Assembly (NCBI GenBank): GCA_003223895.1
Contig: QHXD01000015.1
Location: 441 to 43,110 of the forward strand
DNA: 42,670 bases
DNA from: Acidobacteriota bacterium
Lineage (GTDB): Bacteria > Acidobacteriota > Terriglobia > 20CM-2-55-15
Reading direction: 5' to 3'
The notes under the pieces were generated by a model. The model saw only the letters and a list, made by a program, of their open reading frames with translations. It ran no database searches and had not been told where the DNA came from. A program made the position numbers and the translations under genes. This document shows, piece by piece, positions 6,523 to 24,060 of the stretch. Numbering within the stretch: position 1 is the stretch's first letter; the number at the start of each line of letters is the position of its first letter.

Positions 6523-6897
6523 TCACAAGGACTTCGAAACGGCGTACCCGATCCAAACCAAAAGGAGACCTGCGACGTTGGACACGAGAACGTTGACGCC
6601 CGCGAGAAAGATCTCTCCGTCCCGCAGAAGGTTGAACGTCTGAACTCCGAACGATGAAAAAGTCGTGAACCCCCCCAGAAAGCCAATGAGAACTGCCGAT
6701 CGCAGGACAGGATCGACCAGGTATTTCTCTTCGGTGGCATGAAACAAAAAACCGATGAGGAGGCAGCCGACTAAATTCACAATCAAGGTGCCAATCGGAA
6801 ACGAGGCCCCCCACCGCTCATCTGCCCATCCGGACAGCCAGTATCGTCCCAGAGTCCCTAGCAGACCGGCTACCCCAATGAAAAGAATTTTGTTCAT
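6523..6897 (-). CDS. crcB: Fluoride ion channel CrcB/FluC
   Basis: 124-aa, four-TM-like small membrane protein with GTLGRYWLS and GFLGGFTTFSSF motifs characteristic of CrcB. AAGGAG lies upstream of the ATG. Confidence 0.9.
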   Translation of the reverse strand: MNKILFIGVAGLLGTLGRYWLSGWADERWGASFPIGTLIVNLVGCLLIGFLFHATEEKYLVDPVLRSAVLIGFLGGFTTFSSFGVQTFNLLRDGEIFLAGVNVLVSNVAGLLLVWIGYAVSKSL

Positions 6898-15635: not shown

Positions 15636-16835
15636 TTACTGTAGCATGGCGCGTGCCTCGCCAATCAGGTACAGCGAACCGCAAATGAGGACGGGGTAGC
15701 CGGCGGGGGCGTGCGCCCGAGCGAAGTGAATCGCATCCGTCACCGAAGGTTCTACGCGCGAGCCGGGAACCAGCTCTTGAAGAGCCGCCGGATCCTTGGC
15801 CCGGGTGCTGTTTGGCTTCGTAAAGATGAACTGGCTCGCATGCGGCTCGAGGATCGCGATCATTTCTTCGAACTGCTTATCGGCCATTGCGCCAAAAATG
15901 ATCCACACGTGCGGGTAAAACTCTTCAAGGAACCGCGCGAGCGCTTTCGCCGCGGCGACGTTGTGGGCGCCATCGAGCAGAAAGTGGCCGATTCTTTCCA
16001 ACCGGCCCGGCCAGGTTGCGGTATTGACGCCGCGAATAATGTCGTCCTCAGCGAGACCCAGACACTCCGCTGCACGAACCGCAATCGTCACGTTTTCGAC
16101 CTGGTGACGGCCTGCCAGCCGCGGTCTGAGATTGCGATACCGCCCGATGTCCAGCTCAAAGTAGCCGTCGCCCAAAGACCGGACTTCTTGTTTCAGGTCT
16201 GCAGCCCGAACGAGCCTTGCTCCGGCCTTCTCTCGTATCGCGGGCAAATCCGCCGCCGGACCGATGACAACCGGCTCGTCGTCTTTGATGATGCCGGCTT
16301 TTTCAGCAGCGATCGCTTCTATGGTTGTCCCGAGGTATTCCTGGTGGTCGAGGCCAATGCTGGTAATGACGGATACCTCCTGCCGGACGATGTTGGTCGC
16401 ATCGAGCCTTCCTCCAAGCCCCACCTCGAGCACTGCAAACTTCACCCGGTCCCGGAAGTAGAGAAACGCCATCGCCGTCACGATTTCAAAGTAGGTGGGC
16501 GGATAGAGCAGCTCCTTCGCCGTGGCGGTGGCGGCCTTCACGTGGTCGAACACATCCTTCAGGTCGCCGTCGGAAATCTCCTTTTCCCCGATCCGAATTC
16601 TCTCGTTCAATCGCGTCAGATGCGGCGACGTGTACAACGCTGCTTCCGGCATCATCGCGGAGAGAAGCCTTGCGACAGAGCCTTTGCCATTCGTCCCTGC
16701 AATGAGCACAGACCTGAACGCTTTCTGCGGATTTCCAAGCGCGGAGGCCAATGCCGCCATATTGCGCAGGTCATAGCGGATCGATCGATATTCGTTTGTG
16801 AGAGAAAACAGATAGGCAAGATCGTCAGGAGACAT
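15636..16835 (-). CDS. folC: Bifunctional folylpolyglutamate synthase / dihydrofolate synthase
   Basis: It has a GTNGKGS P-loop and Mur-ligase-like architecture. I chose the ATG at 16835 (MSPDDLAYLFSL). The longer ORF start at 16898 reads through the heptamer repeat and into the neighbouring gene. Confidence 0.9.
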   Translation of the reverse strand: MSPDDLAYLFSLTNEYRSIRYDLRNMAALASALGNPQKAFRSVLIAGTNGKGSVARLLSAMMPEAALYTSPHLTRLNERIRIGEKEISDGDLKDVFDHVKAATATAKELLYPPTYFEIVTAMAFLYFRDRVKFAVLEVGLGGRLDATNIVRQEVSVITSIGLDHQEYLGTTIEAIAAEKAGIIKDDEPVVIGPAADLPAIREKAGARLVRAADLKQEVRSLGDGYFELDIGRYRNLRPRLAGRHQVENVTIAVRAAECLGLAEDDIIRGVNTATWPGRLERIGHFLLDGAHNVAAAKALARFLEEFYPHVWIIFGAMADKQFEEMIAILEPHASQFIFTKPNSTRAKDPAALQELVPGSRVEPSVTDAIHFARAHAPAGYPVLICGSLYLIGEARAMLQ

Positions 16836-16838
16836 GTT

Positions 16839-16875
16839 GGGGAGGAAGCCAGAAGCCAGAAGCCAGAAGCCAGAA
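16839..16875. repeat. Heptanucleotide microsatellite GGGGAGGAA-(GCCAGAA)x4
   Basis: Exact units at 16848-16854, 16855-16861, 16862-16868 and 16869-16875. This array is the reverse complement of the array at 17257-17291. Confidence 0.9.
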
Positions 16876-16879
16876 GGAG

Positions 16880-17242
16880 CTAGTTGAGACGAATACACGC
16901 AATGTAGCGTTCAAGTAAGCGAGAAATCTCCTCAATGTGGTCGAGCAGTGTTGCATTGTCCAGATACCCCAAGTCGTCGGCAAGGATTAGATAATAGCGC
17001 GCCTCCTCTAACGATCCTTGCGCGATATTCATAAGGCGTGCCTTGTCCGGTTTGCCACGTTTTACAAAACCCTCAGCGATATTAGCTGGCACAGAGACAG
17101 CAGCCCGCCGCAATTGGGAGGTTAGTCCGAAAATCTCGGTTCTCGGAAATGACGCAGATTCCCGATAAACCGTTAGCACAAACTCGTGTGCCTTCCTCCA
17201 AACGATAAGATCTTGGAAAGTTCTTGAGGGCGATCTCGACAT
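16880..17242 (-). CDS. Four-helix-bundle protein (23S rRNA intervening-sequence protein / Avd family)
   Basis: 120-aa ORF with FQDLIVWRKAHEF, FGLTSQLRRAAVSVPANIAEGF and GSLEEARYYLILADDLGY. These are signature segments of the TIGR02436/PF05635-type family as I know it. Confidence 0.85.
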   Translation of the reverse strand: MSRSPSRTFQDLIVWRKAHEFVLTVYRESASFPRTEIFGLTSQLRRAAVSVPANIAEGFVKRGKPDKARLMNIAQGSLEEARYYLILADDLGYLDNATLLDHIEEISRLLERYIACIRLN

Positions 17243-17253
17243 TCAAGTACGTG

Positions 17254-17296
17254 TTCTTCTGGCTTCTGGCTTCTGGCTTCTGGCTTCTGGCTTCTC
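17254..17296. repeat. Heptanucleotide microsatellite (TTCTGGC)x5 plus partial units
   Basis: Five exact units run from 17257 to 17291, flanked by partial units. The array ends exactly at the topA stop codon (17297-17299). Confidence 0.9.
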
Positions 17297-19738
17297 TTAC
17301 GACGATACCTCTTCGGTTTCCACCTGAACCTTGTACTTGCAGGATTCCTCGTTGCAGTAACGGATGGGTCCTTCGCGCTTGGTGGTTTTTTCCAACAAGT
17401 AGGGAGAACCGCATTGCGGGCACTGTTCGGGAACGGGCTTGTTCCAGACGACGAAATCGCAATCCGGGTATTTCAAGCAGCCGTAAAAGACCTTACCGCG
17501 CTTTGAACGGCGCTCGATAAGCTCGCCGCCACAACCCGGCTTGGGACAGGGTACGCCGACAGTCTTGGGCTTGATGTATTTACATTTGGGATAATTGCTG
17601 CACGCCGTGAACTCGCCGAATCGTCCGTCCTTCACGACAAGCTTGGCCAGGCCGCATTGCGGGCACGTTTCGTCCAGAACCACGTCGGGTTTCTTTGGAG
17701 TTTTAGTTCCTTGCGCGATCTTGCGGGTGGTCTTGCACTCGGGATATCCGGTGCAGGCCAGGAACTGTCCGAAACGCCCGCGCTTGAGTGCCATGGGCTT
17801 GCCGCAATTCTCGCAGGGTTCCGGTTCGGCTTCGGCTGCGGCTTCACCTTCCTTGGGCGGCTCCTCGAGCGCGATTTCCTTCGTGTTCTTGCACTCGGGA
17901 TACGCCGAACACGCGAGGAAACTTCCGAACTGTCCCCACTTCTTGACCATCGGGCTGCCGCACTTCTCGCAGATCTCGTCGGTGGGTAACTCCTGGCGCT
18001 TGAGGTTCTCCATGTTCTTGGTGGCCTTCTTCAGGTCCTTCTCGAACTTCTTGTAGAACTCGTCGAGCGCCTCGACCCATGTCATCTTTCCTTCTTCGAC
18101 CTCGTCCAGTTCCTCCTCCATTCGAGCGGTGTACTGGATATCGAAGATGTCTTCGAAGTGTTTCACGAGCAGGTCCGTCACGACCGTGCCCAGTTCTGTG
18201 GGCTTGAACTTCCCCTGATCCTTTGTCACATACTCGCGATCCTGAATGGTCGTGAGAATCGTCGCGTAGGTTGATGGACGGCCGATGCCCTTCTCTTCGA
18301 GCGCTTTGACGAGGGATGCTTCGGTGAATCGCGGCGGCGGTTCCGTGAAATGCTGTTTCGGTGTGATATCCAGCAGCCGCAGCTTTTCGCCAACGGTCAG
18401 CGGAGGAAGCGCAATGTCGTCCTCTTCATCTCCAGTTGGTTTGGCGTGGATCTCGTCATCGGCGGATTCCTCATAAACTCTCAGGAAGCCGTCGAATTTC
18501 ATGACGCGCCCGTTTTCCCGGAACAGGTAATCCTTCGCCGAAATCTCAACGGTCGTTTGATCGTAGACCGCAGGGTTCATCTGCGAAGCGACGAATCGAG
18601 TCCAGATCAGGCGATAGAGCTTCAGCTCATCCTCGGAGAGAAACGGCTTCAGGTCGTCGGGAGTCCGGCCGACGAAGGTCGGACGAATGGCCTCATGGGC
18701 ATCCTGGGCGTCCTTTTTGCTCTTATAGAAAACCGGTTTCTCAGGCAGGTAATTCGGGCCGTAAACGTCGGACACATACGACCGCACCATCTGCATCGCC
18801 TCGTCGGAAACGCGCGTGGAATCGGTACGCATGTATGAGATCAAACCAACGCGGCCTTCCTCGCCGCCCAGTTCGATTCCTTCGTACAGCTTCTGTGCGA
18901 CCATCATGGTCTTCTTGACCGTGAAGCGCAGCCGGCGCGCGGCATCCTGTTGAAGTTTGCTGGTCGTGAACGGAGGAACCGGATTTCGCTTCTTCTCCTT
19001 GGTGACGACGGAGTCGACGAGGAAGTCCGACTTCCTTACAACGTCGAGAATGTGATCGGCCTCAGCCTGGTTCCGGACTTCCACGTTCTTGCCCTTGAAC
19101 TTCACCAGCCTGGCACTGAATGGAGGAGGCTCGTGGCCTTCGAGGTTTGCCGTGACCGACCAGTATTCTTCAGGCGTGAAGGCCAGGACCTCACGTTCGC
19201 GTTCCACGATCAGCCGAAGCGCGACTGTCTGCACCCGGCCGGCGGAGATGCCGCGGCGTACCTTGTCCCAGAGCAACGGGCTGATCTTGTAGCCCACCAG
19301 ACGATCGAGGATTCGCCGGGCCTGCTGTGCATCGACGATATGCTGATTGATTCGGCCGGGATGCTCCATCGCGGCGCGAATTGCCTTCGGCGTGATTTCG
19401 TTGAAAAGGACGCGAAAGACTTCGGCCTTGTTGCCGTCGAGGATTTCTTTGAGATGCTGGCAGATCGCTTCGCCTTCCCGATCCGGGTCGGCAGCGAGAA
19501 AGATACGCCCTGCAGTCTTCGCCGCAGTGCGGAGTTCTTTGATGACTTTTTCTTTCCCGGGTATGAGTTCGTAGACGGGTTCGAAATCGTTATCGAGATC
19601 AACTCCCAGCTTGCTCTTGGGCAGATCCTTCACGTGGCCGAGCGAAGCCTTCACGACGAAGTCCTTGCCCAGATATTTATTGATCGTGTTCGCTTTCGCG
19701 GGTGATTCGACAATCACCAATGACTTTTTTATCGGCAT
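17297..19738 (-). CDS. topA: DNA topoisomerase I with multiple C-terminal zinc ribbons
   Basis: It has a TOPRIM N-terminus (LVIVESPAKA, DPDREGE), active-site YMRTDS, and repeated CxxC...C..C zinc-ribbon modules at the C-terminus. Confidence 0.95.
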   Translation of the reverse strand: MPIKKSLVIVESPAKANTINKYLGKDFVVKASLGHVKDLPKSKLGVDLDNDFEPVYELIPGKEKVIKELRTAAKTAGRIFLAADPDREGEAICQHLKEILDGNKAEVFRVLFNEITPKAIRAAMEHPGRINQHIVDAQQARRILDRLVGYKISPLLWDKVRRGISAGRVQTVALRLIVEREREVLAFTPEEYWSVTANLEGHEPPPFSARLVKFKGKNVEVRNQAEADHILDVVRKSDFLVDSVVTKEKKRNPVPPFTTSKLQQDAARRLRFTVKKTMMVAQKLYEGIELGGEEGRVGLISYMRTDSTRVSDEAMQMVRSYVSDVYGPNYLPEKPVFYKSKKDAQDAHEAIRPTFVGRTPDDLKPFLSEDELKLYRLIWTRFVASQMNPAVYDQTTVEISAKDYLFRENGRVMKFDGFLRVYEESADDEIHAKPTGDEEDDIALPPLTVGEKLRLLDITPKQHFTEPPPRFTEASLVKALEEKGIGRPSTYATILTTIQDREYVTKDQGKFKPTELGTVVTDLLVKHFEDIFDIQYTARMEEELDEVEEGKMTWVEALDEFYKKFEKDLKKATKNMENLKRQELPTDEICEKCGSPMVKKWGQFGSFLACSAYPECKNTKEIALEEPPKEGEAAAEAEPEPCENCGKPMALKRGRFGQFLACTGYPECKTTRKIAQGTKTPKKPDVVLDETCPQCGLAKLVVKDGRFGEFTACSNYPKCKYIKPKTVGVPCPKPGCGGELIERRSKRGKVFYGCLKYPDCDFVVWNKPVPEQCPQCGSPYLLEKTTKREGPIRYCNEESCKYKVQVETEEVSS

Positions 19739-19803
19739 ATCTTTCAGACCGCCATGGTCTATCTAATAAGTCGTGTGCGCCGAAAAAGCAACAACGCCTT
19801 TCG

Positions 19804-20916
19804 TCAGAGCCGCCGAATGTATTTCTTTCCAGGCAGTTGGCGGACATACTCGCTGATCTCCAGACCGAGCAGCGCACTATAGACTTCCGACGTGGGCAAT
19901 GGCAACTTAGCGAGCAAGGTATCGAGGGAAATCGCTTCCTGAACCGACAAAAGTTTCCATACCCTGGCCTCGGCCCCTTCGAGCTTCGGCTCAGGCGCAG
20001 CCTGCATTTGAGCCACCAGCGGCGCAAGAATTTTTTCGCGAATCGGGTGTGGGAGCTCCTCCACGACGTCCTGCCAGCCCGCGACGAGTTTGGCGCCCTG
20101 GCGGATCAGAACATGCGGCCCGAAACTGTTGGCCGACGTGATATTCCCGGGCACCGCAAAAATCTCCCGCCCGGATTCCAGCGCTAGCCGGACCGTGATC
20201 AGCGACCCGGAATATTCCGCCGCTTCGACCACGGTAACGCCCAGCGACATGCCCGCAATTATTCGATTCCGGATCGGAAAATTTTGTGGCGAAGGCGGCG
20301 TGCCCAGCGGGAATTCCGAGATAATCGCGCCATTTTCGATCACGAAGTCGGCGAGTTTGCGATTTTCCTTTGGATAGACGAAGTCGAGTCCGCTTCCGAA
20401 AACCGCATACGTGATGCCCGCCCGCAGCGCCCCGCGGTGCGCAGCCGCGTCGAGCCCTCTGGCCAAACCGGACGTGATGGCCAGGCCGCGTGCCGCAAGG
20501 TCCTCTGCGAGACGTTCGGCGCAGTTGATGCCATAACCCGTCGGCCGCCTGGTCCCGACGATCGCCAGCTGCGGCAACTCCGGATTCCATTTCTTCCCGC
20601 GAATATAGAGGACAATCGGGGGATCGTATATTTCGCGCAGGAGCGGTGGATACGCGGAGCTGAGGATATCCACAACGTCCACGCCAAGCTCCACCGTTTT
20701 CGTCCACTCTTCCTCCGCCCGTTGGGCAGACTTCTTCGAGAGCACGTCGTCCGCGACATCCGGCGGAATCCCCAGCGCTTCCAGTTCAGGCCGGCTCGAC
20801 CCAAACACAGCCTGTGGATCTTTAAAGTGCCGCATTAGCGTGTTCGCGGACCGCAATCCCAGTCCGCTCACCAGAAAGAGTCTCAGCGCCGCTTTGGTAC
20901 GATTCTCTTCGTTCAT
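19804..20916 (-). CDS. dprA: DNA-processing protein DprA (Smf)
   Basis: It has LAIVGTRRPT, SGLARGLDAAAH and TVVVEA..SGSLIT motifs. I chose the ATG at 20916 (MNEENR) because GGAGGAGAG lies 5 nt upstream (13 nt from the first G to the ATG). dprA-topA linkage is widely conserved. Confidence 0.9.
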   Translation of the reverse strand: MNEENRTKAALRLFLVSGLGLRSANTLMRHFKDPQAVFGSSRPELEALGIPPDVADDVLSKKSAQRAEEEWTKTVELGVDVVDILSSAYPPLLREIYDPPIVLYIRGKKWNPELPQLAIVGTRRPTGYGINCAERLAEDLAARGLAITSGLARGLDAAAHRGALRAGITYAVFGSGLDFVYPKENRKLADFVIENGAIISEFPLGTPPSPQNFPIRNRIIAGMSLGVTVVEAAEYSGSLITVRLALESGREIFAVPGNITSANSFGPHVLIRQGAKLVAGWQDVVEELPHPIREKILAPLVAQMQAAPEPKLEGAEARVWKLLSVQEAISLDTLLAKLPLPTSEVYSALLGLEISEYVRQLPGKKYIRRL

Positions 20917-21006
20917 AGTTCTCTCCTCCATGTAACATGCAAGGGTTCGACCAAAACGGACAGTTGTGAGAGAATTTGGACCATCCTGCACCGAGGAGAC
21001 CTATAT

Positions 21007-21531
21007 ATGTTTGCCAGGCTGATACTCGCGTTCTTACTTACAGGCAGCGTCGCGTGGGCACAACATGCGGACGACGTCTTTGTCGGGCAGAAGGCGCCGG
21101 AGCTCAAGAGTTCCGAGACCTGGATCAACACGGCTCCACTGAAACTGGAGCAGCTTCGCGGCAAAGTCGTGCTGATCGATTTCTGGGCGTTTGATTGTCC
21201 CTATTGCGCGGAAGCCATGCCCCATGTCAAGGAGCTCTACGACAAGTACGCAAAGGATGGGCTCGTGATCATCGGCGTCCACACGCCGCGGCTCGACTAC
21301 GAAAAGGAAATTCCCAAGATCAAGGAAGCTGTGGCGAAAAAGGGCATCAAGTATCCGGTTGTCGTGGACAACAAGTACGACATCTGGTCGGACTATCTTT
21401 GCAACACCTGGCCCAGCCACTTCGTCGTCGACCAGAACGGTGTGATCCAGCTCAGCCATTCGGGAACGGGCCGTTACGAAGATACCGAAGCGGTCGTCAA
21501 AAGGCTTTTGACCAAAAAGAATGGGAATTAG
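21007..21531 (+). CDS. Secreted thioredoxin-fold redoxin (TlpA/DipZ-C-like)
   Basis: It has a signal peptide, MFARLILAFLLTGSVAWA, and FWAFDCPYC (CxxC). Confidence 0.8.
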   Translation: MFARLILAFLLTGSVAWAQHADDVFVGQKAPELKSSETWINTAPLKLEQLRGKVVLIDFWAFDCPYCAEAMPHVKELYDKYAKDGLVIIGVHTPRLDYEKEIPKIKEAVAKKGIKYPVVVDNKYDIWSDYLCNTWPSHFVVDQNGVIQLSHSGTGRYEDTEAVVKRLLTKKNGN

Positions 21532-21877
21532 CCGGCGCAAGCATGTCGTTGTCTGTGTCCTTTGTGCCTTTTGTGGTTATTCGCTCCTTGCTCAAACGAA
21601 CTATTCCTTAATTAAAGGAACGGTCTTCACAGCCGAAGGCCAATCTTTTCAGGGCGCGAAGGTCACAGTCATCCGGATGGATATCGATGCAAAGCAGCAG
21701 AAGAAAACCCGCAGAGAGGCCGTCAGTGACCGGCTCGGCGAATTTGCATTCCGCCTGGCAGTCGGCCCCGCAAAGTTTCATTTGACTGTTGAAGCGGCTG
21801 GATTCCCGAAGCAGGAAAAAGATGTTGAGATTTTAGGCGATGAACGTGCAGATGTTTCGATTGTTCTCAAAAAGTAG
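21521..21877 (+). CDS. Small secreted carboxypeptidase-regulatory-like (CarboxypepD_reg) domain protein
   Basis: It has a signal-like N-terminus, followed by IKGTVFTAEGQSFQGAKVTV...GEFAFR...Y-type pattern typical of the beta-sandwich domain. There is an 11-nt overlap with the upstream gene. Confidence 0.6.
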   Translation: MGISRRKHVVVCVLCAFCGYSLLAQTNYSLIKGTVFTAEGQSFQGAKVTVIRMDIDAKQQKKTRREAVSDRLGEFAFRLAVGPAKFHLTVEAAGFPKQEKDVEILGDERADVSIVLKK

Positions 21878-22901
21878 CGTTATTCTTCTCCTTCTCGTCT
21901 CAATGAGTCTACCGCTCGGGGCGCAGTTGTTCCCCCGCGGGCGGAAGGATACCGGGCCCAAGCCGAAGAACATTCATGGCGCCGTTCAGGATGCCCGCGG
22001 CAAAGTGATTGTCGGCGCGCGCGTCTACGTACGGGACATGAAAACGAATGTCGTGCGGACGCTGACAACCGACCAGGAAGGCCTTTACAAGGTTTATGCG
22101 CTGCCCCCAACGGCGGACTACGAGGTCTATGCCGAGTTGAAAGGGAAGGCTTCGGAGAAAAAGGTCGTCAGCTCCTTCCTGAACCGCGAAGACAACGTCA
22201 TCAACTTCCAACTCGATGTCGACGTGGTTGCGGGCGGAGGTCGGGAGGCCGATGACGCCGGGCCGGAATTCAAAACGTACGACCTCGTCGAACTGCACGC
22301 CTCTTTTGAAATGCCCGTCGGAGTTCCAGCTCCCGTTCCCTCCGTCCTGTTGCTTCATGGATACGGCGAAGATCGTGCTGTTTGGAATGCTTTTACTCGC
22401 GAGTTGCTGAACCGCGGCTGGGCTGTGATGGCCCTGGACCTGCGGGGTCACGGCGAGAGCAAGACAAAGAACCAGAGGCCCATCCAGGCGACACAGGAAT
22501 GGCGAACCAGCCTCCATGAATTCCCGCTCGATATCGATCCCGCCCTCGACTGGCTCAAGGCTCAACCGCGAATCAACAACAGCAGGATCGTCGTTATTGG
22601 AAGCGATGTCGGCGCCAATCTCGCGCTGATCTCGAGCGGCAGGTTTCCGGAAGTTCGTACGGTTGTCGCGATCCAGCCCAAGTTGAGCGAGAGCCTCGCC
22701 ATGGCCGGCAGCGCCCAGGACTTCAAACCCAAGTCCGCGCTGATCATCGTTGCCGACGAAGCTGAAGGAAACCGGGTGAAGACGGCCGTGGCCAATCCTT
22801 CACGCGTTCAGGTCGTTCCCCTTTCCGGCGGCACATCGCAGTGGGTTGCCGACAAGCGCGTCGCGGATGCCGTGTTTCAGTGGCTCAAGGAAACGTACTA
22901 A
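21840..22901 (+). CDS. Secreted CarboxypepD_reg domain fused to an alpha/beta hydrolase fold
   Basis: It has a signal peptide, IHGAVQDARGKVIVGARVYV...GLYKVYALP, then LLLHGYGEDR...DLRGHGES, and a nucleophile elbow reading GSDVGA (Asp at the nucleophile position, as in GHDxGA enzymes). The start could be 21840 or 21852. Confidence 0.7.
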   Translation: MNVQMFRLFSKSSVILLLLVSMSLPLGAQLFPRGRKDTGPKPKNIHGAVQDARGKVIVGARVYVRDMKTNVVRTLTTDQEGLYKVYALPPTADYEVYAELKGKASEKKVVSSFLNREDNVINFQLDVDVVAGGGREADDAGPEFKTYDLVELHASFEMPVGVPAPVPSVLLLHGYGEDRAVWNAFTRELLNRGWAVMALDLRGHGESKTKNQRPIQATQEWRTSLHEFPLDIDPALDWLKAQPRINNSRIVVIGSDVGANLALISSGRFPEVRTVVAIQPKLSESLAMAGSAQDFKPKSALIIVADEAEGNRVKTAVANPSRVQVVPLSGGTSQWVADKRVADAVFQWLKETY

Positions 22902-23052
22902 GGGGAGGAAGCCAGAAGCCAAGAAGCCAGAAGCCAGAATGGGATCGTTCACTAGGCTCCATTCTGGCTTCTGGCTTCTGGCTTCTGGCTTCTGGCTTCT
23001 GGCTTCTGGCTTCTGGCTTCTGGCTTCTGGCTTCTGGCTTTCACGATCCCAT
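22902..23052. repeat. Heptamer hairpin without cargo: GGGGAGGAA-(GCCAGAA)x4, 22-nt loop, (TTCTGGC)x11; probable bidirectional terminator
   Basis: Left units span 22911-22939, with one 8-nt variant (gccaagaa). The loop is 22940-22961. Eleven exact TTCTGGC units span 22962-23038. In addition, atgggatcgt (22939-22948) is the reverse complement of 23043-23052, which overlaps the rlmN stop. Confidence 0.9.
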
Positions 23053-24060
23053 TTTTGCCAATTGGCCACAGGCAGCCGAAATATCGTTGCCGCGGTTTTT
23101 CCGCACGAAGGCTGAGATGTTGTGGTCGGCGAGGACTTGCTGAAACCGCTCGACTGCGGCATCCGGCGGCCGCCTGTAACTGAGTTCATCGGCTTCGTTC
23201 AAGGGAATCAAGTTGACCTTCGCGCGAAGTCCCTTCAGCAGCTTCACGAGATTCAACGCATCGTCTGTCGAGTCCGTGACTCCTTTGAGCAGAACGTACT
23301 CGAAGGTCACGCGCTGCCGATGCTTGAGCGGAAATCGGCGGACTGTGTCGAGCAATTGTTCTATCGGATATTTGCGATTGATCGGCATCAATTCGTTTCG
23401 CTTCTCGTTCGTGGCACCCGTAAGCGAAATAGCGAGATTCGGAATCATCGGCTCATCGGCGAGCCGCTCAATTCCCGGCAGGAGCCCGGCGGTGGAAAGC
23501 GTGATCCGCGACATGGATATGTTCAATCCGTGCTCATCGTGCAGGATCCGGATTGCCTTCATGACATTGTCGTAGTTGTGCAGGGGTTCCCCCATGCCCA
23601 TCAGAACGATATTGAAACTGTCGCGCATTTCCCAGGAGAGGTTGTCACGCTGGGCCACCAGCACCTGCGTCACGATTTCGCCCGGGCGCAGGTGCCGGAT
23701 GAGACCGATCTGGCCCGTCAGGCAGAACTTGCAGTCGAGCGCGCAGCCGATCTGCGATGAAATGCAGATCGTATTGCGGCTTTCTTCGGGAATGAAAACG
23801 GTTTCTGCAAACTCGCCGTCGTCGAGACGGACCAGGTAACGGCGGGTTCCGTCCACGGAATCGAATCTTCGGTGAACGGCCGGCAGGTGAATGTTCCATT
23901 CTTCGGCAAGCGAAGCGCGAAACGCCTTTGGCAAATCGGTCATCAGCTCGAAGCTATCGAACCAGCGCTGATAGACAGATTTGTAGATCTGCGTCGCCCG
24001 GAAAGGCGGACTGAGGATTTCGGCCAGCTCGTGCCGTTCATAATCGAAGAAAACTCGCAT
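23041..24060 (-). CDS. rlmN: 23S rRNA/tRNA (adenine-C2)-methyltransferase RlmN (radical SAM)
   Basis: It has CALDCKFC (CX3CX2C), MGMGEPL, and a C-terminal SAACGQL with the conserved Cys. Confidence 0.92.
   Translation of the reverse strand: MRVFFDYERHELAEILSPPFRATQIYKSVYQRWFDSFELMTDLPKAFRASLAEEWNIHLPAVHRRFDSVDGTRRYLVRLDDGEFAETVFIPEESRNTICISSQIGCALDCKFCLTGQIGLIRHLRPGEIVTQVLVAQRDNLSWEMRDSFNIVLMGMGEPLHNYDNVMKAIRILHDEHGLNISMSRITLSTAGLLPGIERLADEPMIPNLAISLTGATNEKRNELMPINRKYPIEQLLDTVRRFPLKHRQRVTFEYVLLKGVTDSTDDALNLVKLLKGLRAKVNLIPLNEADELSYRRPPDAAVERFQQVLADHNISAFVRKNRGNDISAACGQLAKMGS

Follow-up and report, generated by a model that had tools for sequence, protein, structure and literature searches.

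A four-helix-bundle gene enclosed by inverted heptanucleotide arrays between topA and folC of a soil Acidobacteriota genome and its likeness to 23S rRNA intervening sequences

A four-helix-bundle gene and its arrays at the topA-folC locus

The DNA analysed here, hereafter the window, is a stretch of 42,670 nucleotides from a soil Acidobacteriota metagenome-assembled genome (MAG; contig QHXD01000015.1, positions 441 to 43,110). Between its topA and folC genes lies a minus-strand gene for a four-helix-bundle (4HB) protein that is enclosed by two inverted arrays of a heptanucleotide, and we refer to the gene, the arrays and their end motif together as the cassette. The 4HB gene (16880-17242, minus strand, 363 nt, 120 aa) is the sole open reading frame (ORF) between the arrays and forms the cargo in the loop of the hairpin. 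On the coding strand, the 5' (upstream) arm (17257-17295, minus strand) begins right after the topA stop codon and comprises (GCCAGAA)x5 and partial units, which on the plus strand appear as (TTCTGGC)x5 at 17257-17291 with partial units reaching 17295. A spacer of 14 nt (GAACACGTACTTGA, 17243-17256, minus strand) without a clear Shine-Dalgarno sequence separates this arm from the ATG, and it is partially conserved in orthologues as GGACCTAT.CG. The gene is followed by the 3' (downstream) arm (16848-16879, minus strand), which reads CTCC and (TTCTGGC)x4 on the coding strand, and then by the terminal motif TTCCTCCCC (16839-16847, minus strand). On the plus strand this motif is GGGGAGGAA, directly followed by (GCCAGAA)x4 at 16848-16875. 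Allowing at most one mismatch, the window contains 18 occurrences of the 14-mer GCCAGAAGCCAGAA, where 0.03 would be expected.

The cassette fills the entire spacer of two co-oriented cistrons, from the stop codon of topA to the start codon of folC. The upstream host cistron topA (17297-19738, minus strand), which shows the Pfam domains Toprim and Topoisom_bac in orthologous contigs, has its stop codon TAA at 17297-17299, 5 nt (GAGAA) past the last full array unit. The downstream host cistron folC (15636-16835, minus strand), with Mur_ligase domains in orthologous gene calls, starts with an ATG at 16833-16835 that is 3 nt (AAC) from the GGGGAGGAA motif, and this start is backed by the gene calls of orthologous contigs. 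When the minus strand of 16830-17305 was folded as RNA, the arrays paired with each other in a stem of ~33 bp that encloses the entire ORF, with a minimum free energy of -175.8 kcal/mol (z = -5.1 versus shuffles), and 28 bp of this stem come from the shorter arm with its four full units. The initial annotation, made without database searches, had described inverted heptamer arrays, a single 363-nt minus-strand ORF between them, tight packing against the neighbouring genes and a stem that could close around the ORF. All of these hold, and the arrays are exact reverse complements of each other.

Scanning the cassette for promoters gave no promoter-like match. The sole terminator-like match was located within topA, with none in the spacers or at either arm. 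The stems are followed by TTCCTCCCCAAC and TTTCACGATCCC and lack a U-tract, so that they are unlike the G+C-rich hairpin and U-tract of an intrinsic terminator. A search for rRNA in 16300-23400 gave no match.

The 120-aa protein falls into the S23p, or 23S rRNA intervening sequence (IVS), family to which it had been assigned, as both family models score it above their curated cut-offs: PF05635 at 117.3 bits (E 4.5e-34, cut-off 33.8) and TIGR02436 at 111.1 bits (E 2.9e-32, cut-off 24). A profile built from the protein together with 31 relatives matched PDB entry 2GSC, the pentameric XCC0516, with E 4e-27 over 113 positions, and the same 32-sequence profile matched 2RLD with E 2e-7. Kinship with Avd, the accessory protein of diversity-generating retroelements (DGRs), had also been suggested; it stands as a faint, distant homology (Avd profile NF033474, E 5e-5), but the score of 23.5 bits is far under the family cut-off of 80. 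In addition, the immediate neighbours are topA and folC, with no DGR reverse transcriptase or template/variable repeats, and a flanking heptamer hairpin is not a feature of DGRs. By analogy to Avd as a relative, a nucleic-acid-binding role of the 4HB protein can be guessed at. Among 4HB orthologues at topA-folC, dN/dS was 0.02-0.12 with synonymous sites at or near saturation, which indicates that the protein is under purifying selection and is therefore made and used. A second 4HB gene was not detected by tblastn within the window.

The locus was compared in a population set of 11 sequences, consisting of the window and ten metagenomic contigs, nine with an identical 4HB protein and one with an identical folC. 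The order topA-4HB-folC is the same in all ten contigs, at 90-98% nucleotide identity. The upstream arm has 5, 5, 5, 6, 7, at least 7, at least 10, 13 or at least 14 units in the contigs, and the downstream arm has 4 units in 11 of 11 sequences. Orthologues with 78-89% protein identity (L129-L137) also keep the gene at topA-folC with both arrays, having 1, 2, 3, 5, 11, 14 or 15 upstream units and an interrupted downstream array of 3-4 units. The arrays have persisted through saturated synonymous divergence of these orthologues, and the shorter, stable 3' arm of the cassette limits the stem to about 28 bp. The variation in repeat number that the initial annotation had anticipated is thus borne out by the contigs, with 5 to at least 14 units in the population and 1 to 15 across species, and the flanks of the gene are the same at the orthologous sites. 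As a separate observation, six of the 11 population sequences (L001, L002, L003, L005, L006 and L217) have two or three copies of a 105-bp tandem unit, in which the final ~70 nt of the 4HB ORF are joined to the (TTCTGGC)4 arm and which is orthologous to window 16848-16950; transcripts with such tandem units offer several alternative 3' arms.

In farther relatives, with FolC 72-77% identical, the synteny dprA-topA-folC-plsC is kept and the cassette is absent. Their topA-folC spacers are 46, 60 and 203 nt long (L225, L227 and L226, respectively), each with a different hairpin. The suggested comparison of orthologous spacers therefore shows the cassette in close orthologues and not in farther relatives, a distribution that fits gain or loss. 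No target-site duplication was visible at the cassette ends in the window and the orthologues.

Arrays around related genes, in rRNA and without a gene

Relatives of the 4HB protein were collected from metagenome contigs by alignment, which gave 80 loci with 60-79% identity at many unrelated genomic sites. Among the 78 genes with enough flank, period-7 arrays were present on both sides in 45, upstream only in 11, downstream only in 18 and on neither side in 4. Accordingly, 74 of the 78 have an array on at least one side, and the bracketing of this gene family by arrays, proposed from the single locus, is systematic. Array density within 200 nt of the 4HB genes was 2.39 per kb, compared with 0.227 per kb elsewhere in the same loci. 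The units vary by locus (GTCAGGA, GTCAGAA, GACAGAA, TCCAGAA, GGCAGGA, GCCAGAA, TTCAGAA, GCAAGAA and GTGACGA), and most fit NNCAGRA. The two arms of a locus co-vary, the downstream array being complementary to the upstream one, with a unit-spectrum overlap of 0.30 within loci versus 0.09 between loci (p = 5e-14), and in 57 cassettes they align over a median of 36 nt. Arrays of up to 28 units occur in the relatives, and the downstream array often starts in the last codons and provides the stop codon. In 34 cassettes with both neighbours called, the gene was co-oriented with both neighbours in 23 and opposed to both in 2, and the median gaps to the neighbours, 57 and 43 nt, are essentially the arrays. 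Considering this co-orientation and the small gaps, the typical cassette has no promoter and is packed tightly between two cistrons that belong to one transcription unit.

Cultured bacteria carry the same layout. Searching plasmids by tblastn gave 25 records with 4HB relatives, and the protein identity between Acidobacteriota and Nostocales plasmid copies is 60-67%. On pNPUN02 of Nostoc punctiforme PCC 73102 and plasmid C of Anabaena variabilis ATCC 29413, arrays of the type ATCAGGA GTCAGGA GTCAGAA GTCAGGA GTCAGAA stand right before the ATG and complementary arrays extend over the stop codon. More distant members use other units, GGGAAAA/TTTTCCC in Nostoc ATCC 53789 and Geminocystis and GGCAGAA/TTCTGCC in Stanieria, and a Gemmatirosa cassette uses the octamers GGCAGGAG/CTCCTGCC. 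In Picosynechococcus PCC 7003, the cassette is located between cmr2 and cmr3 (L231, 1195-1551), and the 4HB genes of Anabaena sp. 90 (L233, 483-851) and Pseudanabaena galeata (L236, 498-857) are located between cas6 and cas4. A domain listed as "23S rRNA IVP" is among the CRISPR-linked domains (PMC10910872), and cassette insertion into cas operons may explain part of this statistical link.

The origin and meaning of rRNA IVSs and of their conserved ORF have posed questions since the early 1990s. In Azospirillum lipoferum 4B, a 4HB ORF on AZO_p2 (L237) lies inside a 23S rRNA gene (Rfam LSU_rRNA_bacteria) and is thus part of a genuine IVS. On its 5' side this IVS has CAGAGGA CGGATGA CAGAGGA CGGAGGA CAGAAAG, followed by the 4HB ORF, and on its 3' side TCCGTCC TCTGTCT TCTGTCA TCCGTCT TCTGA; upon folding, these arrays form its terminal stem (z = -10.4). 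The IVS of Coxiella burnetii, in helix 45, has terminal inverted repeats with a 28-bp stem, is cleaved by RNase III in vitro with its ends mapped by rapid amplification of cDNA ends, and carries, immediately ahead of the S23p ORF, a strain-dependent number (two or three) of tandem GACAGAT units together with GACAGAA (Warrier et al. 2016, PMC4990558).

The topA-folC cassette resembles the rRNA IVSs of Coxiella, Leptospira and Azospirillum lipoferum 4B in most of its anatomy. The ORF is of the same S23p (PF05635) family and is enclosed by terminal inverted repeats with a long stem of about 28 bp, and tandem heptamers lie 5' of it (GACAGAT/GACAGAA in Coxiella, CAGAGGA/CGGAGGA in Azospirillum and GCCAGAA here). 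Their copy number varies among strains, the distribution among relatives is sporadic, and there is no promoter of its own. The cassette differs from the IVSs in its location, which is the spacer of two protein-coding cistrons rather than helix 9, 25 or 45 of a 23S or 16S rRNA gene, and in its arms, which are perfect microsatellites of up to 15 units. Furthermore, excision by RNase III has been shown for rRNA IVSs, whereas it would apply to the cassette by homology. The idea of an IVS-style cassette in a protein-coding operon, put forward in the initial annotation, is supported by the anatomy of the Azospirillum IVS and by the heptamers and stem of the Coxiella IVS (PMC4990558).

The window has a second array pair, which was missed at first reading. 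It is a gene-less copy of the heptamer hairpin (22902-23038) between a convergent hydrolase gene, the stop codon of which ends at 22901, and rlmN, with its stop codon at 23041-23043. The left arm (22902-22939) consists of GGGGAGGAA and GCCAGAA GCCAAGAA GCCAGAA GCCAGAA, about 4 units, and is followed by a 22-nt loop (22940-22961) and (TTCTGGC)x11 (22962-23038). The fold is near-perfect, at -88.6 kcal/mol (z = -8.2), and the rlmN-side arm has 2, 4, 8, 10 and 11 units across populations. Since GGGGAGGAA is found only twice in the window, both times joined to an array, the gene-carrying and gene-less elements are related. With regard to a miniature inverted-repeat transposable element or another transposon-like element, inverted arms are present, a direct duplication is not visible at the ends, and the window has one gene-carrying and one gene-less copy with a common end motif. 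The gene-less loop TCGT-TC-ACTAGGCTCC resembles the 3' end of the cassette, TCGTCTCAACTA-GCTCC, but with p only ~0.05 versus shuffles, no match in orthologues and an opposite orientation relative to the common TTCCTCCCC end, and we treated this candidate trace of a deleted cassette as chance or inconclusive. The only Rfam matches were sub-threshold ones of eukaryotic microRNA precursors to the gene-less hairpin, a generic effect of long hairpins.

Species-representative genomes were scanned for the pattern (GCCAGAA)x3, which gave 119 loci (L010-L128), many of them in Acidobacteriota and Planctomycetota. Paired arrays were present in 24 of the 119 loci, all as 5'-GCCAGAA...TTCTGGC-3' with gene-less loops of 9-185 nt. 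On either strand, the purine-rich array of an inverted pair was always 5' of the pyrimidine-rich one and never the reverse, though both orders would form hairpins. A phmmer search of the 119 loci for 4HB genes gave none, and a custom hidden Markov model gave L040 only. In this locus, from another Acidobacteriota MAG, a very distant 4HB ORF between radA and alr is flanked by (GCCAGAA)4(GCTAGAA)2 and (TTCTGGC)8, and a gene-less hairpin is present nearby (6771-6845) between rplI and dnaB.

Interpretation of the cassette and its rivals

We assign the topA-folC element to the class of IVS-type cassettes with high confidence. We further consider it probable, with some reservation, that it is one of a widespread kind of hairpin-borne cassettes and that the ORF-containing 23S rRNA IVSs are the known examples of that kind. 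In such an element, a promoter-less 4HB gene is carried in the loop of a long hairpin whose arms are inverted heptanucleotide microsatellites, with a purine-rich 5' arm of NNCAGRA type (GCCAGAA here) and a complementary TYCTGNN 3' arm (TTCTGGC here). The cassette would be transcribed by read-through within the topA-folC host operon, because there is no promoter or terminator match in the spacers, the genes are tightly packed and the neighbours are co-oriented. In the transcript, the arms are predicted to form a perfect duplex of about 28-33 bp, the type of substrate that RNase III cuts. By homology with the rRNA IVSs, cleavage would free the 4HB message and separate the messages of topA and folC from each other. 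The number of arm units shifts by slippage, with a hypervariable, perfect 5' arm, and the shorter, interrupted 3' arm sets the effective stem length. Acquisition of the cassette would have taken place in a single Acidobacteriota lineage, and the spacer concerned carries a hairpin of some sort in all relatives examined. We attach moderate confidence to RNase III processing of the topA-folC transcript and to mobility of the cassette.

Several observations weigh against this interpretation. In the sense transcript of 57 cassettes, stem mismatches comprised 118 G·U-giving and 120 A·C-giving transitions. With these equal, pairing is not demonstrably selected in the sense RNA, and the counts fit an origin or role of the inverted arrays at the DNA level equally well. 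The hairpin does not need the gene, since gene-less versions of it with the same arms are present at 22902-23038, at L040 6771-6845 and in about 20 further cases. In Pseudanabaena galeata (L236), the arrays are direct, with (AAGCTAA)x15 upstream (~370-497) and (AAAGCCA)x9 downstream (858-960), and as this orientation allows no enclosing stem, the locus is an exception. The topA-folC ORF is under strong purifying selection, in contrast with the Coxiella ORF, which is decaying and apparently neither expressed nor translated (PMC4990558). In addition, it is only because of homology that we retain the RNase III model.

The equal mismatch counts also favour the main rival, in which the element is a mobile cassette at the DNA level, the inverted arrays are terminal inverted repeats or recombination sites and the RNA stem is incidental. 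Recognition might occur via the conserved CAG core, or by homologous exchange between hairpins with the same units. Presence and absence at orthologous topA-folC sites, the 60-67% identity of the proteins from Acidobacteriota and from Nostocales plasmids, the occurrence of copies on conjugative plasmids as well as in cas operons and rRNA, the common asymmetric end motif TTCCTCCCC of the two elements in the window and the invariable purine-first order of the arms all point in this direction. On the other hand, no transposase, integrase or reverse transcriptase adjoins the examined cassettes, target-site duplications are not visible, no single cassette was found at two sites of one genome, and the arm sequences vary by locus while the protein is conserved. 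Moreover, the topA-folC orthologues have been inherited vertically over saturated synonymous divergence, and we consider this explanation unlikely. Even less probable is that the hairpin is a generic intergenic one, REP-like or terminator-like, serving to stabilise the 3' ends of mRNAs or to end transcription, with the 4HB gene as a chance passenger. It would account for the hairpins that have identical arms but no gene and are found where convergent genes end, for the presence of some hairpin in every topA-folC spacer of relatives and for the replacement of the heptamer hairpin at the rlmN site by an unrelated palindrome in another lineage. However, the association of gene and arrays is beyond chance, with arrays at 74 of 78 relatives and a 10-fold local enrichment, the stems have no trailing U-tract, and the layout also exists within 23S rRNA, a place in which termination would do harm.

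The range of 1-15 units at one orthologous site could also reflect a simple-sequence-repeat tuning switch, in which the number of 5'-arm units sets the expression of the 4HB gene or folC and the hairpin acts as a sensor of repeat length. A precedent exists in the 5' untranslated region of hmw in Haemophilus influenzae, where a hairpin of transcribed (ATCTTTC)n undergoes processing by RNase III and determines expression, and RNase III is required for the change in repeat number (Rapun-Araiz et al. 2025, PMC12721329). As at topA-folC, a transcribed heptanucleotide microsatellite of polymorphic repeat number is one arm of a long hairpin there. The hmw hairpin differs in that its second arm is a G-rich region and not an inverted microsatellite, its loop has no gene, and it regulates a downstream adhesin with no 4HB protein involved. 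At topA-folC, the short and stable 3' arm caps the stem, so that extra 5' units mainly add choices of register, and promoter spacing is not involved. As the primary explanation, we consider a tuning switch improbable, and it is compatible with, rather than exclusive of, the IVS-type cassette that we favour.

In repetitive extragenic palindromic (REP) systems, REP sequences flank RAYT genes. The 4HB cassettes resemble REP/REPIN and RAYT in having short intergenic repeats around one type of gene plus many gene-less hairpins. They differ in that the 4HB protein lacks the fold of a nuclease or transposase and that the repeats are inverted microsatellite arrays, not fixed palindromes. Cyanobacterial heptamers, the short tandemly repeated repetitive sequences and TAACTGA (PMC4679880), are similar in that tandem heptamers are abundant in intergenic DNA by start codons. 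Such heptamers have been described near start codons in Nostoc (bioRxiv 10.1101/2022.06.06.494920), and TAACTGA direct repeats occur in Beggiatoaceae and cyanobacteria with a single inverted case (PMC4679880). The TAACTGA repeats are direct, whereas the cassette arrays come in inverted pairs.

"Four helix bundle protein" is among the commonest unexplained annotations in bacterial genomes, and the family now gains a concrete, testable anatomy. The heptamer-repeat stem with a 4HB gene links the rRNA IVSs to free-standing 4HB genes, in rRNA, in cistron spacers and in CRISPR-cas operons, and the element spans Acidobacteriota, Cyanobacteriota, Gemmatimonadota and Pseudomonadota. Taken all together, a joint reading is conceivable, though we hold it only tentatively and think it rather less probable than the assignment of the topA-folC element itself: most free-standing PF05635 genes, in at least four phyla, may be the cargo of one unrecognised class of hairpin cassettes that act in a REPIN/RAYT-like manner. 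The classical ORF-bearing 23S rRNA IVSs would then be the rRNA-resident minority. The cassettes would colonise hairpin loops in transcribed DNA, such as rRNA helices, cistron spacers and cas operons, with arms that are inverted heptamer microsatellites and renew themselves. The target of the pentameric protein would be its own repeat hairpin, which it would either spread or maintain or whose RNase III processing it would control, so that the gene and its dispersed gene-less hairpins would make up a pair in the manner of REPIN and RAYT. Tractable carriers exist in Nostoc punctiforme PCC 73102, Anabaena variabilis ATCC 29413 and Picosynechococcus PCC 7003, and the topA-folC locus offers a natural example of hypervariable microsatellites, paired and inverted, that give an RNA stem of adjustable register.

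The initial annotation knew of no description of this architecture. In the literature, with few subscription journals covered and an earlier description thus possible, we found none of non-rRNA 4HB genes flanked by inverted heptamer arrays, and within the same coverage the repeat sequences of the cassette were not found in a bacterial context. The statement holds for the architecture outside rRNA and for its generality, but not for the heptamers as such, which have been described for the Coxiella rRNA IVS.

Unpaired arrays and other hairpins

On its own, the exact unit GCCAGAA does not identify a cassette, as unpaired single arrays of it occur in Aggregatibacter, Streptomyces, Pseudomonas, Vibrio and Zymobacter. 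Partnerless (GCCAGAA)n in unrelated bacteria (L050, L078, L120, L012 and others) reaches 22 units in Zymobacter, 8 in Pseudomonas syringae, 11 in Vibrio and 3 in Aggregatibacter. Other candidate pairs were rejected: a wide pair spanning 977 nt with an unrelated 293-aa ORF (L081) and the pair of L087 were attributed to chance, and the pair at 253-710 of L163 has no ORF of at least 70 aa on the cassette-sense strand.

The cassette-free topA-folC spacers of the farther relatives correspond to L226 3298-3500, L227 3441-3500 and L225 3455-3500. One of them is a 203-nt nested palindrome with a folding energy of -141.8 kcal/mol, and another contains a hairpin with octamer-repeat arms, CTTTGTGT / CACAAAGA.

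At the gene-less hairpin of the window, the start of the loop, TGGGATCGT (22940-22948), is complementary to ACGATCCCA (23043-23051), which lies in the last rlmN codons just past (TTCTGGC)11. This complementarity is kept in other populations (L219 and L222-L224) and may reflect either an older stem of which it is a remnant or an alternative pairing. In L220 and L221 (GCA_036752225.1), an unrelated perfect palindrome of ~38 bp made of CGCGAATGA repeats replaces the heptamer hairpin at the rlmN/hydrolase junction, so that at this junction a hairpin is kept while its sequence has been swapped between lineages.

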